Source: Octopus vulgaris
Taxonomy: Eukaryota
Length of the DNA: 64,000 bases
NCBI GenBank assembly: GCA_951406725.2
Contig: OX597821.1
Coordinates: 103,354,001-103,418,000, forward strand
Reading direction: 5' to 3'
The translations under genes and the position numbers were made by a program. Under the pieces are notes generated by a model. It saw only the letters and a program-made list of their open reading frames with translations. It was not told where the DNA came from and did not search any database. Below, in pieces: positions 8,056 through 57,569 of this stretch; the first letter of the stretch is position 1; each line of letters starts with the position of its first letter.

Positions 8056-8658
8056 TACACATTAACACACGCGCACAAACACACACATACAATTTTCTCT
8101 GTCTGGTAGAAGTGAAAGTGCAAGGCTATTTAGAAACCACGTGATCAAAGGCCAGTGTTACATTAGAATAACCAATCTAAGTCGAACAAAATTTCAAAAT
8201 AAAATTCATGCATGACAAAAAACTAAAATGAAAAGACAAAGAAAAAACCCAACAAAAATCTATCTCCTTCCCAAAATAAAAAGGTGTGTTCGACTTCAAT
8301 CGTTGCACCAACAAAGTTTTCAAGCCCTACTCTCTGTCAAGTTTGTTGATTACAACACCTGGGCCTTGCCGCTCCCTGCTCTTGTTTACAACTACTGTTC
8401 CTATGACTACGACCACGACTATTATCTCTGTTAACTCCAGCACCGTCAGTCGTTGCAACGTCATTATCAACTATGACACCACCGCCATCACCACCACCAC
8501 CACCACCACCTCCACCTCCACCACCTGTACCGCACCGTCGCCAAGACGACCACCGCTATCGTTAACCAGCCCCACTGCGATTATCATCATCATCACTATC
8601 ACGATGATCGCCTATATCGGCGTCATCAGAAACACCACCACCACCACCACCACCATCA

Positions 8659-8987
8659 CCCCAAAAGGATGAAAGGCCAAGTCGACCTCGGCGGAATTTG
8701 AACTCAGAACGTAAAGACAGACGAAATACCGCTAAGCATTTCGCCCGGCGCGCTAACGATTCTTACTTCTTATTTCTTTATTGCCCACAAGGGGCTAAGC
8801 ACAAAGAGGACAAACAAGGACAGACAAAGGGATTAAGTTGATTATATCGATCCCAGTGCGTAACTGGTACTTATTTAACCGACCTCAAAAGGATAAAAGG
8901 CAAAGTCGACCTCGGCGGAATTTGAACTCAGAACGTAAAGACGGACGAAATATAGCTAAGTATTTCGCTCGGCGTTCTAACGTTTCT
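8659..8987 (-). mobile_element. SINE family C dimer (C2-tail unit joined to a second C unit)
   Basis: Two copies of GAGTTCAAATTCCGCCGAGGTCGAC on the minus strand, joined at TAAAGAAATAAGAAGTAAG|AATCGTTAGC (about 8760). Confidence 0.85.
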
Positions 8988-9302
8988 AACAGTTTGCGGT
9001 ATTTAAGAATCACACCATACGCTCTGAGTTCGATTTCGGTCGACGTGATGTTTGTACTTTGCTCTCGTGGGGAACGGGCAGTAAACTACAATATGAAATT
9101 ACTGGTTTCCTTAAGATGACTTACTCGACCGATTTACCCCCGCACACACACACACTCACACACACACACGTGCGAATTCCTTACCTTGGGTTCTTGGTAG
9201 ACACGGTTGCGGGTCACACCGTTTCTTCCAGCCAACCGTCTGTCTGTATGTCTGTGTGTCATACAAATATGAGTATGTGTGTTATGGTTGCTGATGCTGA
9301 AA

Positions 9303-16285: not shown

Positions 16286-17117
16286 CTAAATTTGTTCATC
16301 GAGGCTCAATTGCCTCCATATCTGCTTAACTGGTTTCCTCTTATAGCTATTCTTTATCGCGCAGAATTCGTCCCTCGTAAAGACTTCTGAGTCGAATTTC
16401 GAATCATTTGAGCGCTACTAAGTGTTTTCTATACCGAGCATCTCTGGATCTCATCTGTTGACCATACACAGACACGCACACACACAAACACACACACATA
16501 ATACATACATACATACATACATACATACATACATACATACATACATGCATGCATACATACAAACATGCATACATACATACATTGCTTAGAGCTGTCTTGA
16601 TAGATTCTAAAAAAACATGTAACCAATGATCACGGATTGGAATTGCAATGATGTATCCACACAATCCGCACTGACCTAAAATAAAACAAAATCAGCACCG
16701 CCACCACCAGCACCACCACCACCAGCACCGCCACCAACAGCTATAGCAGTAGCAGTAGAAATGTCCGTTTATTTGAACTACTCAAGGGGAAAATTAAATT
16801 AAAAATAAAATAATGACTTCACTTAAACCAGCAAAGAAAACTATGTTAACAAACCAAAAAGCGAAGTTCATTTTGTCTGAGACAACGTAATTGTTTCTGG
16901 CAGCCAGTTTTACCGATTATTTATTAAATATGATATGGCATTTTCGTGAGAAGGAATTACACTACTCTGAGTTTACGAAAGTGAAAGTACTTCTTCATTG
17001 ACCTACACGTATTTCAAAGTGCAGCTAAATAATCGGATGGTCTTAATTTCCATAACCTCTGTTTCTTTCTGCTATAATCGATCACTTTTCATTTGCAATA
17101 TCTATAGGCTTCGGAAA

Positions 17118-17880
17118 GCGGCGATCTGGCAGAAACGTTATCACGCCGGGCGAAATGCTTAGCAGTATTTCGTCTGTCTTTATGTTCTGAGTTCAAATTC
17201 CGCCGAAATCAACTTTGCCTTTCATCCTTTCGGGATCGATTAAATAAGTACCAGTTATGCACTGGGTTCGATGTAATCGACTTAATCCGTTTGTCTGTCC
17301 TTGTTTGTCCTCTCTGTGTTTAGCCCCTTGTGGGTAATAAAGAAATAGGTATTTCGCCTACCGCTGCGTTCTGAGTTCAAATTCCGCCGAGGTCGACTTT
17401 GCCTTTCATCCTTTCGGGATCGATTAAATAAGTACCAGTTATGCACTGGGTTCGATGTAATCGACTTAATCCGTTTGTCTGTCCTTGTTTGTCCTCTCTG
17501 TGTTTAGCCCCTTGTGGGTAGTAAAGAAATAGGTATTTCGCCTACCGCTGCGTTCTGAGTTCAAATTCCGCCGAGGTCGACTTTGCCTTTCATCCTTTCG
17601 GAATCGATTAAATAAGTACCAGTTATGCACTGGGTTCGATATAATTGACTTAATCTGTTTGTCTGTCCTTGTTTTTCCCCTCTGTGTTTAGCCCCTTGTG
17701 GGTAGTAAAGAAATAAGGAACGTTAGCACGCCGGGCGAAATGCTTAGCGGTATTTCGTCTGTTTTTATGCTCTGAGTTCAAATTCCACCGAGGTCGACTT
17801 TGCCTTTCATCCTTTTGGAGTCGATGAATTTAGTTTCAGTTGCGTATATTTCAACCCTTGTGCCTAGATTAGAAAAGAAT
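17118..17880 (+). mobile_element. SINE family C head-to-tail array (three 184-bp C2 units plus a terminal C unit)
   Basis: GTATTTCG starts recur at 17165, 17349 and 17533 (period 184). A fourth unit restarts at AACGTTAGCACG (about 17719). Confidence 0.92.
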
Positions 17881-18169
17881 ATATATAAGCGTCGGTAATC
17901 ATGGATTTGCATCCCAATGTCCAAAGGCTTCTGAATTTAAAGTTCAAGTGGCTGAGCATTCTGCTGACTCGCGTACACTTAACATGGCAGTTGCACGGTC
18001 GCGAAAGCTATGTTGTTATCCTCATTCCGTAAACGGTGGCTTTTAACGGGTGGAGAGCTGAACCATCCTGGGGTAGAGAGGATTCACAATCTAGACTAGG
18101 GTCTTAAAGTTTACTACACCATAGTGTGCTACACCATGGTTCCTTTGTTTTGTGGCAGAAGTAGGACGA

Positions 18170-18923: not shown

Positions 18924-18974
<51 letters not shown>

Positions 18975-18975
<1 letters not shown>

Positions 18976-19139
18976 GCCGGAGAAAATGCTTAGCGGCATC
19001 TCATATGTCTTTACGTCCTGAGATCAAATTCCGTTGAGGTCGAATTTCCCTCTCATTATTTAGGGGACGATAAAATAAGTACAAGTGGAGCCCTGGGATC
19101 GATGTAACCAACTTACTATCCCACTCCGAAATTTGAAAC

Positions 19140-19140
<1 letters not shown>
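18975..19140 (+). mobile_element. Diverged SINE family C embedded in (ATT)n
   Basis: AAATGCTTAGCGG ... GATCAAATTCCG ... GATAAAATAAGTAC, with (ATT)n on both sides. Confidence 0.7.
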
Positions 19141-19187: not shown

Positions 19188-20302
19188 TTTTGTTTTTTCT
19201 TCTTTCAAATTTTCTTCCATTTCTTGCCGAGTGTCTTCCCGACTCCTAGGGCAAAGAAACTCATAGTGTATATTGGTAGGCCATTAAACCAAACTCAGTA
19301 GTTCGTTCATTTTTTTTTTTTTTTTTTTGTTAAAGTTAAATTAAAATGCATGAGCAGCAACAGTTCTCACATCGACAATGCTCTTCTCAATACGTGTGAT
19401 GTACCAGTTAAGACAATCTTTTGCACTTCTTGCAGGGATGGTAAGCCAGGGATCATTCTCATATAATTTTCGATTCCCTTCTTGATCATTCCTAGTGCTC
19501 CTACGATCACTGGTATTGTAACCGCCTTGAGATGCCACATTTTCTCAATTTCAATGAGTAGGTCTTTATATTTTCTGAGCTTGTCAAACTCTTTCGCTGA
19601 GATATTATGATCACAGGGGATGCTCATGTCGATCAATAAGCAAACTTTAATGTTTTGGTCTTTCACAACAATATCTGGTTTATTGGCCTTGATGGTTCGG
19701 TCTGTATGTACTGGAAAGTCCCACAGAATGGTTACATTTTCTCCTTCAGTTACAGCCTCAGGGTGGTGATTATACCACTTGTCGGCAGTTTTGATATTGT
19801 AATGCCGACTTATTAGCCAGTGGAGATATTGGCCAACTCTGTCATGTCTTAATTTATACTCCACTGGTGCTAAGACTTTACATCCAGAGATTAGGTGGTC
19901 CACTGTTTCAATCATGTCGTTGCAGAATCGGCATTTTGGGTCTGCTCCATTTTTCATCACATTGGCCTGGTAGTTCCGGGTTGATAGGCTTTGGTCTTGA
20001 GCAGCGAGGATGAAACCTTCGCTCTCTGCTTTTAGCCCTGAGCTCCGCAGCCACTGATGGGTTTGCTTCTGGTCAACATCAGCTTGTTTGCTGCGGGTCA
20101 CATATTTGCCGTGCAGAGGTTTCTCCTCCCACCTATCAGCCAATTGCTCGTGCGCTTTTTTCATTGCCATCATTTTCACCTTCTTTGCAGCAATAGTTGC
20201 CGTACTTCCCTCGGGTTGTTCAGTTTGGGTATCCTGCACGAGATCAATAGCAAATTTTTTGCTTTCCTTGATGATAGAATGAAGCTTCTTTCGTCTCTCG
20301 TG
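19187..20302 (-). mobile_element. Non-LTR retrotransposon, RLE type (R4/Dong-like), 5'-truncated with intact zinc knuckle and endonuclease
   Basis: ORF 19367-20239 has CRFC...ETVDHLISGC (CCHC), RHD and KPDIVVKD...LLIDMSIP...KLRKYKDL (PD..D/ExK). 3' UTR runs to about 19187, with (AAT)n at both ends in element sense. Confidence 0.92.
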
Positions 20303-20380
<78 letters not shown>

Positions 20381-21018
20381 GTTATGACTATGTTTGCTTT
20401 ACATTTGCACAAGCTGGCTCCAAGTCTCACCCAGAGACCTCAAGAGACAACAAGTTGGAAGTTCATGTTGGTGTTATGCCTAGGGTGCCATATATTTGGT
20501 TTTGTACTTAGTGTTGTACTAGTGAATGCCTAAAAAACCATACGAAAATTATGTTTGTATTAAAACTTGAGATTACATAGAAAGTATTTTGCGTAGGATA
20601 TGTGCAGTTCCTATGAGCACTATCTTTTGAATTTCTGCCATTTTTGGGTTTCCTGGTATCTGAGTTAGGTAGCAATCGGCCCCATTTGTTATCATTCCCA
20701 GGGCACCTATGACAACAGGTATTGCTTTAGTCTTCAGGTTCCACATTTTGCTGATTTCTATTTCAAGATCTTTATATTTGCTCATTTTCTGGTAGGTCTT
20801 GACAGATATGTTTATATCGATTAGGACAGTCATATCAATGAGGAGGCATGTTTTTTGTCTGAAGTCTTTTACTATGATGTCTGGCCTATTCGCGTCTATC
20901 TTTCTGTCAGTTTGAATGGTGAAGTTCCAGAGGAATGAGATGTGGTCATTTCCAAGAACTGGAGGTGGTTTGTGTTCCCACCAGTTTTTATCATGAAGCA
21001 AGTCCAGGCTTTTGCAAA
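20381..21018 (-). mobile_element. Second RLE-type LINE 3' end (distinct subfamily)
   Basis: WEHKPPPV ... LWNFTIQTDRKIDANRPDIIVKD ... LLIDMTV ... KYKDLEIEISKMW ... VVIGALG (20573-21018). Has a different 3' UTR and (AAT)n on both sides. Confidence 0.9.
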
Positions 21019-21075
21019 TTATTATTATTATTATTATTGTTGTTGTTATTGTTGTTGTTGTTGTTGTTGTCGTCG

Positions 21076-21112
<37 letters not shown>

Positions 21113-21139
21113 TATTATTATGATTATGATTATTAAAGA

Positions 21140-22350
21140 TCGAGTAGAGGTCGCGAGTGCGAACATCACCTTCTTAATCACGCCCGTTGAACGGGACTGT
21201 TTACATTTCTGCCTCCTGTGGAAAGACCGCATTCTACTGGTCAGGCGGTCCGTAAATCGTCAGCGTGCTCTGGGAGACTGGCTTGCCATGTCATAGCTGC
21301 TAATCACCGACAGGTGTTGCGACTACGCAAATTCGTGAACCGGTATGGTCTCCGTTAGTAAGGCTCGCTTTTCCCCTGCTCATTTCTTTCACAGAGATGC
21401 AATCCTGGGTCTAGAAAAGACGAAGATTAGGCGCCTGGGATCAAGAATTTTGTCATGCGCTCAGTGCTTTCTGTAAGTCAGGGAATACGGTCAGTGGAAG
21501 TTCTACAGTAGCAGTACATAGTAATATAGTGGTGGGTAAGCGCCGTAACGTTCTCAGTGAAACTCTAGGAATTTGAGGCATTCAGAATCGGTACTACCAT
21601 GTATAACTTCCAGAAATCTCTAGCCTGGTAGTGCTGCTGAGGAATAGTGACAGTTTAAGATAAATTTTACAGGCACGTAAGCACTGTCAGGCGGGGCTGT
21701 TCGAGGTGCGCACAGAACGACGAAACCGTTCTGCATGCACTCGTGCAGTGTCCAAGTATTTTGGGTTTGTGGAGTTATGTCGAACAGCTGTTATCATGAG
21801 TGGGACTAATCCGAATATCGACCGAATCCACCGTGAGAATCGATGAACCTTTAACAAGGCAGAGCAATCGGTGTTCCTCTGTCCAGTGGCTATGGCGAAA
21901 GAGGTTGTGTGATGGACGAGAAAGGACTGAGAAAAGACATACTCCTCTTCAGTGAAGCTCTCACCGACTTTTGCAAGTTCCACCTGGAAAGGTAAGTGAG
22001 GGTGGAGAGATAAGTGCTACCTCGGAGTGAATTTATGAAAATATTGGTGACTGGCAAAATGGTTAGAGTGATTCACCACACTTTACGTATTCGCCTGTAG
22101 GGGAGCAAGAGGAGAGGGGGCCCGTACCATTGGTGGTCATGTTAATCCATGGTCTGTGGGCTTCCTTGATTGGCCCTTGTTGAGGTTTCTCCTGCTTTCG
22201 GAGGGTTGCATCTTTCATGTTATCACATTCTTTGTATACCATGTGCACATTTATCACATTTCATTGTCTTTTCCATTTGTTTCTCACCATCCTTTCTGTA
22301 AATCTCCACACAAATTGTTGCCTGTCCTTGTGATGTTCCCTTGTGGCTAA
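21140..22350 (+). pseudogene. Decayed L1/Tx1-clade ORF2 C-terminus plus 3' UTR
   Basis: Manual translation: NFQKSLAW*..VTV*DKFYRH..CSRCAQNDETVLHALVQC (zinc knuckle 21698-21751)..FLCPVAMAKEVV*WTR..FCKFHLER*VRVER. Multiple stops; boundaries approximate. Confidence 0.75.
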
Positions 22351-26038: not shown

Positions 26039-26770
26039 GTTAGTTAGTTAGTTAGTTAATTTGGCTCAAAAGCAAATAACAAGGCCATGTAGGGGGACAT
26101 GGAGTTAAGTACAGAGTGGTGTTCATGTAAAGAGTTCAGGCCACTTGAGGTCAAGGGAGGCTTTGAACAAAGCGGTCGTCGGCATCTTCACCATCTCGTC
26201 TGGCAGCTTGTTCCACGGATCCGCAACCCGTACGGAGAAAGCTCCTCTCCTTCGATTGAGATGAAATCGTCGCAGGTAGAGCTTTTCGGAATTACCCCGC
26301 AGCCGACGCTCTGGAGCAGGAGTGAAGAACAGCTCTTTCGAGAGGTCACACTTTCCGCTTATGATGTTGTGGGCGAGAATGAGATCCCCATGGCGGCGGC
26401 GTTTTTCAAGAGAATAAAGGTCGAGCGTCCTCAGCCTTTCTTCATAGGACAAATTTTTGAGACCATGAACCAGGCGGGTAGCCAGCTTCTGGACTCTTTC
26501 GAGATGCTGTATGTCTTTGAGGAGATAAGGAGAAGAGGCTTGAATCCCGTACTCCAATATGGGTCTCACCAGCGTGACATAGAGTGGTAGGAATATGGCT
26601 GCTGTGAGCATTCCGAATGACCGTCGAATCAAGAACAGAATTCCGCGTGCTTTGTTGGCAGCATGGACGCACTGGGCCGAAGGCGAAAAGGAGGAATCCA
26701 CCAAGATACCCAGGTCCTTTACCTGATCGGTCCTCTCCAGCAGCAGACGACCCGGCTCGGAGCACAGCAT
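26039..26770 (-). mobile_element. CR1-clade LINE, 3' end of ORF2 and (ACTA)n tail
   Basis: ORF 26123-26770 reads KDLGILVD ... LYVTLVRPILEYG ... LERVQKLATR ... SYEERLRTLDLYSLEKRR ... GDLI, a typical CR1 RT C-terminus. Confidence 0.93.
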
Positions 26771-26877
26771 AGTTGAAGAACTCGACTCTATTGGAGCCCC
26801 GACTATTTTGAGTTCAAATTCCGTAGGGGTTTACCTAGATGTAGACTTGATTCTTCTCTAGCTTGTCGTCGAGGGTT

Positions 26878-37658: not shown

Positions 37659-37872
37659 GGCGGCGAGCTGGCATAAACTTTAGCACGGCGGGCGAAATGC
37701 TTAGCGGTATTTCGTCTGCCGCTCCGTTCTGAGTTCAAATTCCGCCGAGGTTGACTTCGCCTTTAATCATTTCGGGTCGATAAATTAAGTACCAGTTGCG
37801 TACTAAGGTCGGTCTAATCGACTGCCCCCCTCCCCCCAAATTTTGTGCCTTGTGCCTCGAAGAGTAGAAAAG
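37659..37872 (+). mobile_element. SINE family C (C1 tail)
   Basis: GGCGGCGAGCTGGC head, GAGTTCAAATTCC, and a tail running into (ACT)n. Confidence 0.88.
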
Positions 37873-37935
<63 letters not shown>

Positions 37936-39668: not shown

Positions 39669-39949
39669 GTAGCACCACCCCATCATTATAAGATTCAGTG
39701 AAGTATTATTGTACTATTTTCTTCTACTATAGTCACAGTATGTAAAATGTTACTAAAGGAGTCGTAAGTCGAGTACAATGACCTCAGTACTCAATTGGTA
39801 TTTATTTTATCAACCTCCGCTCCTCAAGGATGAACAGCAAATTCTACCTCGGCGTAATTCGAACACAAAACATAAATCCTCAAGAAATCCTGCAAAGCAT
39901 TTTGTCCGGAGTGCTAACGATTCCACCAGCTCACCTTTACTTTATTTAA

Positions 39950-40342
39950 TCTTTTCTTCTCTGCTCTAGGCACAAGGCTCGAAATTTCGGGAGGGAGCCA
40001 GACGATTAGTTCTACCCCAGTGCGCAAGTGGTACTTAATTTATTGACCTCGAAAAGGCGAAGTCGACCTCGGCGGAATTTCAATTCAGAACGTAAAGACG
40101 GACGAAATACCTATTTCTTTACTACCCACAAGGGGCTAAACACAGAGAGGACAAAAAAAGGACAGACAAACGGATTAAGTCGATTATATCGACCCCAGTG
40201 CGTAACTGGTACTTATTTAATCGACCCCGAAAGGGTGAAAGGCAAAGTCGACCCCGGCGGAATTTGAACTCAGAACATAAAGACGGACGAAATACCGCTA
40301 AGCATTTCGCCCGGCGCGCTAACGTTTCTGCCAACTCGTCGC
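39950..40342 (-). mobile_element. SINE family C dimer (C2 unit joined to a C1 unit)
   Basis: Junction TAAAGAAATA|GGTATTTCG at about 40111, identical to the junctions at 17348 and 17532. Confidence 0.88.
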
Positions 40343-40643
40343 ATTCTTTGCTTTATTTAATGCGTCAGAATGCTTACAGTGGAGGGAGATTTTGTCAGCA
40401 ATTACTTGAAGGTCTAGTGACCAGATGCAGACCTCCATTTTTGTCGTTTTAACTTCATTCATATTAATTCTACGTTTTTGTTTAGAAACTCTGTCCGGGT
40501 CGACTTTAAATCATTCATGAGTTGCGGGCGATTAAAAGTAAATTATTCATAAGAAATTGCGCTTTCCCAGTGCAACAAAATGTTCCTTATATTCAAATAC
40601 GTCACTAAAGTATCTTTGAAGAAGAAATGAAAATTCAACTAAT

Positions 40644-56965: not shown

Positions 56966-57010
56966 GTAGCGTTTATTTATCCTCAATGTGGTGGCTATTT
57001 ATCCTGAAAA

Positions 57011-57208
57011 GGGCGACGATTTGGCAGAAACTTTAGGACGCCGGGTGAAATGCTTAGCAGTAGTTCGTCTGCCATTATCTTCTGAGGTCAAATTCCGCCG
57101 AAGTCGACTTTGCCTTTTATGCTTTCGGGGTCGATTAAATAAGAACCAGTTATACACTGTCCTTGTTTGCCGCCTCAGTGTTTAGCCCCTGTGGGCAATA
57201 AAGAAATA
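57011..57208 (+). mobile_element. Solo SINE C with C2 tail (internal deletion)
   Basis: C head with tail TTTAGCCCCTGTGGGCAATAAAGAAATAA. Confidence 0.8.
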
Positions 57209-57569
57209 AATATGGTGGCTGAGAAATCTTAAAATATCTGGGCGATTTTATTTGAATCCTTCCACATTTTAACTGGAACTTTCCACTTAAAGTGACGTTG
57301 TCATTCATGGCTTCAAGATCAATAAAACCCCTTGAGAAAGAGTTCTAATTGACAGAATCTTCCTCTACAAGTTGTGATGCTGTTTTGCAACGTGTAAGAA
57401 TTTGATAAAAACTTGAACAAAAATGGCTTCCTAATATCGTCTGATATGAATTTTAGATTAAGTTGTTTTTGATGTCGTTATATAGAAGATAGCAAATATA
57501 CTGAAAATGTCTCTCTATATTTTTATAGGTAAAGAAAAAAGAGTTGTGTGATTATTTCGTTAGGTTTTT

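Follow-up and report, generated by a model that had tools for sequence, protein, structure and literature searches.

Fixed tail-to-head joints in a SINE family fit the fusion, copying and reshuffling of composite SINEs better than a new self-targeting mechanism

SINEBase defines a SINE as a short interspersed repeat with at least 100 copies and at least 60% identity to tRNA, 5S or 7SL RNA over 60 nt (available text of PMC3531059). In complex SINEs such as Alu, B1-dID and Urop, fused monomers move as a unit, with an A-rich tail linking monomers that are largely complete, and the head-to-tail multimers of B2 and Dip make up as much as 40-49% of copies, with nested insertions or dimeric templates left open as their origin (PMC3531059, PMC13023118 and PMC8466645, in their accessible parts). 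In the blood clam Scapharca broughtonii, tRNA-type SINEs form TSD-(SINE)n-TSD arrays: one target-site duplication (TSD) surrounds the chain, the first head is complete, later units have the same head truncation, the tails of inner units are incomplete as well, and ~3% of the SINEs are involved (PMC11481361, as far as its available text goes). Squamate sSat repeat one fixed SINE segment in tandem at many loci; the terminal unit is longer, and variants differ by fixed 5' truncations. Their arrays are long and homogenised, and the accessible part of PMC10702118 reports no true dimeric SINE. R2 is an autonomous element that inserts site-specifically and has its 5' end made by a ribozyme; its template jumps onto U12 snRNA and tRNA connect this fixed 5' end with a small RNA's 3' end, and one such jump can found a subfamily (PMC3414825, accessible text). 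Whether SINE multimers originate by nested insertion, from a composite template or by a template jump is left open in the available parts of PMC10702118, PMC8466645 and PMC11481361.

The repeat family described here (family C) suits counting in one assembly, as it combines very many copies, two base-exact joints, two tails and several head subtypes. It was analysed in a window of 64 kb, the whole stretch of DNA under study, which is animal DNA rich in microsatellites. A profile search found ~20 family C pieces at E<1e-3, equal to 5% of the window. All copies have a common head and core (positions 1-165), followed by either a C1 or a C2 tail. The abundance is that of a SINE: besides the ~20 window pieces, 171,529-205,755 contig records per run from three related organisms (C, D and E) were aligned to positions 39780-40520. 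TSDs at three of six loci, together with the absence of a family protein, agree with non-coding, LINE-dependent insertion. A box-A-like word stands at position 10 in 5/5 heads; the strict box B pattern occurs in 0/5, where the candidate is one base longer. No tRNA match to family C was found in Rfam at E up to 5-10 or by ARAGORN, and no LINE end sharing the C1 or C2 tail lies within the window. The ribozyme that would mark a retrozyme was not found in family C either, with no Rfam model at threshold and no hammerhead core motif. The core is putatively a 'Meta-domain', the central domain common to a superfamily such as MetaSINE or CORE-SINE, and the window and the repeat presumably resemble octopus sequence; octopus OK/OR1/OR2 SINEs were reportedly described by Ohshima and Okada in 1994.

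The features of the arrays and of the solo copy are given below in window positions, where J1 and J2 denote joints at head positions 47 and 14.

17098..17117, plus strand: left TSD copy of the four-unit array, 16/20 identical to the right copy
17118..17347, plus strand: unit 1, full-length C2 (head, shared core, C2 tail)
17348..17531, plus strand: unit 2, C2 from head position 47 (J1), a local mosaic
17532..17715, plus strand: unit 3, C2 from head position 47 (J1), GCCGC-type head variant
17716..17878, plus strand: unit 4, from head position 14 (J2), with C1 tail and an internal core deletion
17879..17898, plus strand: right TSD copy of the four-unit array
40346..40361, minus strand: upstream TSD copy of the dimer, 15/16 identical to the downstream copy
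40112..40342, minus strand: full-length C2 unit of the dimer
39955..40111, minus strand: C1-tailed partner in the dimer, from head position 47 (J1), GTCTTT-type head variant
39935..39950, minus strand: downstream TSD copy of the dimer, which shares bases with the start of older copy D (39936-39726)
8771..8987, minus strand: C2 unit without the first 13 nt of the head
8658..8770, minus strand: 7-nt linker and unit from head position 14 (J2), its 3' end lost in a microsatellite
57013..57208, plus strand: solo C2 with an internal deletion
56985-56996 / 57209-57220: candidate TSD of the solo C2, offset 16 nt from the head, 11/12 identical
40284..40313, minus strand: predicted 13-bp head hairpin, head positions 30-59, loop 43-46

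Six copies of the C2 tail motif lie in the window, ending at 17347, 17531, 17715 and 57208 on the plus strand and at 40112 and 8771 on the minus strand. Five of these six are followed immediately on the 3' side by a 5'-truncated family C head, at three loci, just as the original prediction had described. The sixth, predicted as a solo copy near 57011, is indeed solo at 57013..57208, and its tail leads into unique DNA. The two fixed joint points were also confirmed: J1 occurs in three cases (17348, 17532 and 40111) and J2 in two, directly at 17716 and, at 8763, after a 7-nt linker similar to the last heptamer of the C2 tail. As predicted, the last unit bears a C1 tail in both arrays in which it is complete (17716-17878 and 40111-39955). 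The last unit of the 8987 array (from 8770 on) runs into a TGG microsatellite at ~8658.

Several other family copies adjoin the arrays or lie apart from them. The 8987 C2 unit itself begins at head position 14, the J2 position, and a decayed family head (8993-9047, plus strand) lies inverted and head-to-head with it. The dimer is inserted exactly at the 5' end of the older family copy D (39726-39950, minus strand; 72-77% similar). Two C1-type copies, at 18968-19140 and 37659-37875, lie within trinucleotide microsatellites, with TAT repeats ahead of the copies and ATT or ACT repeats behind them, which suggests a target habit different from that of the arrays.

Set beside the described systems, the arrays appear to work like complex SINEs. 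Two of the three are a multi-unit copy within one TSD, and their fused monomers would have moved as a unit. They differ from complex SINEs in that the joint lies inside the head, at two positions, and in that the right unit keeps the candidate box B but loses all or part of the box-A-like word. The likeness to the S. broughtonii arrays extends to the single TSD around the chain, the complete first head and the recurrent head truncation of later units, and the clam elements being tRNA-type SINEs of a mollusc was counted as a further likeness; unlike in the clam, the C2 tail of inner units is complete here, the last unit bears the other tail type, and five of the six C2 tails in the window are joined. 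With squamate sSat the arrays have in common tandem units of a fixed SINE segment at different loci, a longer terminal unit and variants by fixed 5' truncation, but they have only 2-4 units of mixed subtypes per locus, bounded by TSDs, and the window holds no long homogenised arrays. The arrays recall R2 in that a small RNA's 3' end is attached to a fixed 5' end; family C differs from R2 in having no detected ribozyme. The open literature yielded no description of the J1 and J2 joints, and the available parts of PMC4824008, PMC4758252, PMC5786205 and PMC13282606 contain none; an earlier description in closed papers, Repbase, figures or supplements is possible.

The joining of C2 tails to family heads is far above chance. 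Random insertion at position 14 or 47 of a head has a probability of ~1.4e-4, if ~9 intact heads per position are assumed. At most 18 of the 389 AGAAA words in the window lie within family copies, so microhomology alone is not enough to produce J2 twice. The five joints are not all independent. Unit 2 of the 17118 array (17348) shows no difference from unit 1 in positions 101-219 and none from unit 3 in positions 47-116, and unit 1 differs from units 2-3 at 11/54 sites in positions 47-100. Judged from these identities, unit 2 is the product of a recent local unequal crossover between its neighbours. Because this mosaic makes the joints at 17348 and 17532 non-independent, J1 and J2 each count two independent loci. 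Units 1 and 3 also have three changes in common (118, 141 and 150) that do not occur together in other window copies.

A single TSD encloses the whole array in two of the three arrays, which makes each of these two one insertion footprint; this enclosure is a new addition to the earlier observation. The TSD copies of the 17118-17878 array match at 16/20 positions, 0 nt from both ends of the array, with 3/1500 random partners as good, and those of the 40342 dimer match at 15/16, with 2/1500 as good. The candidate TSD of the solo C2 is weaker (14/1500). Among the six loci at which a TSD was sought, three have one, and none was found at 8987, 10834 and 37660. A reading with T as the first base is possible for all three TSDs, and in two of them a run of 3-4 T precedes the TSD by 5-15 nt, the start being ambiguous by one base and the T reading having been chosen (n=3). 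The RTE signature is a TSD that starts with T ~10 nt after a T stretch (PMC6007223; cf. PMC13295347; available parts). With the start ambiguous by one base, two of the three TSDs match it, and an RTE-type enzyme would be a fitting partner.

The joined arrays fit the known fusion, copying and reshuffling of composite SINEs better than a new self-targeting mechanism. On the reading we favour, which we hold to be somewhat more probable than all else, the arrays are copies of composite multi-unit SINE sources, transcribed by Pol III read-through, moved as a unit and altered by core-to-core recombination. J1 and J2 would each have formed rarely, when a C2 copy was joined into a family head, and J2 would have formed via the AGAA microhomology between the tail and head position 14. 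Pol III would start at the first intact head (position 1), so that any upstream remnant is dropped and first heads come out clean, and would read through the C2 tail into the next unit. The chain would then be reverse-transcribed from the tail of its last unit and land as one insertion with one TSD. Recombination in the shared core, either by unequal crossover or by template switching between family RNAs, could add, remove or swap units, leaving the joints fixed and changing the content between them. A C2-J1-C2-J2-C1 chain could give rise to the other observed forms in this way, by the process seen locally in unit 2. T runs of at least 4 stand at different places in different copies; none is common to all C2 units, and thus no common terminator was seen. 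Position 218 is T in all three J1 tails and C in the solo copy; contigs that break at 40154 also have C as their consensus in each of the three organisms. If the composite reading is right, family C adds a well-marked example to the evolution of composite SINEs, and repeat annotation calls for caution, as the units would not be independent insertions.

The weak point of the composite model is the variety of heads behind J1. At least two head subtypes occur after the joint, their diagnostic sites beginning only 9 nt past it, and the bodies that follow are of both the C2 and the C1 kind. One master is therefore insufficient, and several origins, or switches within the 9-nt window, are needed. 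The original prediction had named descent of all arrays from one dimeric master copy as one case that would overturn it, and this case is borne out in part, as descent from composite masters. The single TSD around whole arrays and the amplified haplotypes linked to J1 speak for such descent, and the several head subtypes after J1 speak against it.

Contigs of the related organisms provide further evidence on the joints. In each of organisms C, D and E, J2 ranks within the 15 joints with the best support, on 4, 5 and 3 contigs. Derived head haplotypes 7-11 nt past J1 reach 25, 30, 47, 79 and 105x the single-copy flank depth in organisms C and D, where summed contig depth is neither a copy number nor a measure of the joined fraction. 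At least five rows of such J1-linked haplotypes are present among the rows listed, and to judge from the shortest sides listed (21 nt), these pieces would extend into the C2 tail. In at least some cases, J1 appears to have been passed on and amplified, and the high-depth haplotypes may be local arrays instead of dispersed copies. In organism E, the C1 tail, copy D and the upstream flank of the 40342 locus are present at 7-12% divergence, so the insertion is old; 18 nt over the downstream TSD copy are missing there, and as a result the C1 tail adjoins the D head. Six contigs in E and one in D join the core end to head position 36, with undefined letters between, which hints that heads also lie 3' of tails other than C2. 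A two-fold depth step at the 5' end of the head is similar in organisms C, D and E and was dropped. The alignments covered four of 24 listed runs, of which the raw-read run X22 gave 10 aligned reads among 12.9 million records and is uninformative.

Recurrent template jumping within one insertion is a possible though improbable source of the joints. Reverse transcriptase copying a family RNA cut in a head loop (at 14 or 47) would run off its 5' end and jump, once or several times, to the 3' end of a C2 RNA, a process for which jumps of R2 from its RNA 5' end to another RNA offer a precedent (PMC3414825, in its available part). One TSD per array would again result, no insertion signature would be expected at the joints, as is observed, and several head subtypes after J1 are well accounted for. 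The predicted fold of the head RNA consists of two hairpins, in which J1 lies just 3' of the second loop (43-46) and J2 opens the loop of the first hairpin (14-19), so that both joints stand at loop edges. At J2 there is AGAA(A) microhomology between the C2 tail and head position 14; J1 has no microhomology, but the tail's final 6 nt are the complement of head positions 49-54. When the joint is folded, however, this tail-head stem is not the best structure, and covariation in the hairpins, 84-87% of whose cells are paired across copies, is not above shuffles among the family copies. The three changes common to units 1 and 3 are also unlike independent RNAs, and the amplified derived haplotypes beside J1 suggest that the joint was inherited in at least some cases. 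Template jumping, which the original prediction had offered as one mechanism, keeps a place as a candidate, but jumping alone does not explain the amplified J1 haplotypes. Composite sources and recurrent template jumping may both be at work.

An extension of this idea, which we consider just as doubtful, is that C2 hitchhikes on the insertions of its relatives. Family RNAs would be cut in the two head loops, reverse transcriptase would jump repeatedly, and the joints would be remade and then copied. With the same low probability, the C2 3' end could be held at the cut by microhomology (at 14) or by mimicry of the 5' arm of the hairpin (at 47). The cuts in the head loops are likened to the cleavage of tRNA in the D-loop and the anticodon loop. 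If true, hitchhiking would link the cleavage of tRNA-like RNA to in-vivo template jumping between SINE RNAs.

Homing at the DNA level, the mechanism put first in the original prediction, is unlikely and was not upheld. A later C2 insertion would enter a C head at 14 or 47, its 5' end resolved by homology and the old TSD kept. On this model the joints should be targets of an endonuclease, C2 units should be the younger ones, and head stubs or inner TSDs should turn up now and then. No internal TSD and no upstream stub or target remnant was found in any of the three arrays. In two intact heads, the first base at the J1 and J2 sites is G or A, the DNA there is GC-rich (60-65%), and no T run is present; the sites thus lack the T-rich signature of the outer TSDs. 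Unit ages were compared from divergence counts in which three ragged end columns were dropped and diagnostic columns excluded. The 40342 dimer gives the one divergence result in favour of homing: its C2 unit has fewer changes (2/96) than the C1 partner (7/89; p=0.09), and the changes of that partner look locus-private. First and last units are equal in the 17118 array (7/96 vs 7/82), and the order is reversed in the 8987 array (5/96 vs 1/60); the pooled counts are 14/288 vs 15/231 (p=0.45). On these counts the C2 units do not appear to be consistently younger than their partners. In favour of homing, organism E has the C1 tail, copy D and the upstream flank, and its C2-tail share of summed depth is, as a rough figure, 0.14 vs 0.56-0.58 in organisms C and D.

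All explanations other than those named here are, even together, rather unlikely. Purely local tandem duplication at each locus, a seed for a SINE-derived satellite, is very improbable. Duplication of this kind is seen in unit 2 (17348), where the mosaic explains one of the five joints, but it cannot make the C2-to-C1 joints at 40111 and 17716, nor does it explain why unlinked loci, and three organisms, have a joint in common. As a full explanation it is ruled out by the C2-C1 dimer at 40342. The earlier argument that local duplication is insufficient is thus sound for identical joints at unlinked loci, with the mosaic unit as the exception. Least probable is retrozyme-like rolling-circle reverse transcription of circular C2 RNA, a further mechanism of the original prediction, which would suit the 184-nt repeat length and the three changes shared in units 1-3 of the 17118 array but is contradicted, since it predicts identical units with one tail, by the different head subtypes (11/54 sites between unit 1 and units 2-3 in positions 47-100), by the C1 tail on last units, and by the lack of any Rfam family at threshold and of a hammerhead core motif on either strand.

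Remnants of non-LTR retrotransposons lie in the same window. Two adjacent 3' fragments of the restriction-like-endonuclease (REL) type, at 19367-20398 and 20573-21259 (both minus strand), have CCHC and PD..D motifs by eye and a weak zf-RVT match below the cut-off. Both end at an AAT microsatellite, as Dong/R4-type elements do, and no SINE tail is shared with the fragments over 19367-21259. At 26123-26830 (minus strand), a 235-codon open frame resembles, by eye and with no Pfam match, the C-terminal part of a LINE reverse-transcriptase protein.

Searches for the family elsewhere returned mostly unrelated sequence. Protein databases gave 1, 0 and 15 matches to antisense translations across J1, which are spurious translations; the 15 matches were considered as sources of joints, but tblastn across the joints was too ambiguous for typing and was not used. 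One protein, P0003, predicted to be aminopeptidase-like, has ~43 residues from the antisense strand of the family repeat, either an annotation artefact or an exonisation. In prokaryote genomes, 122 loci (L001-L122) proved to be unrelated bacterial palindromes, none of them a family copy. A 17-nt segment of the C2 tail happens to match a palindromic repeat that starts with GTAG and is abundant in Anaerolineae and other bacteria, and which we take to be REP-like. Pattern scans for the family gave 0 and 0 matches in viral contigs and 0 and 6 in metagenomes, where five of the six are chance matches of 20-22 nt. The sixth is a 50-nt relative of the family core with 86% identity, located behind a different tRNA-like head (metagenome contig L128:792-842), which suggests that the core may be common to another animal SINE.
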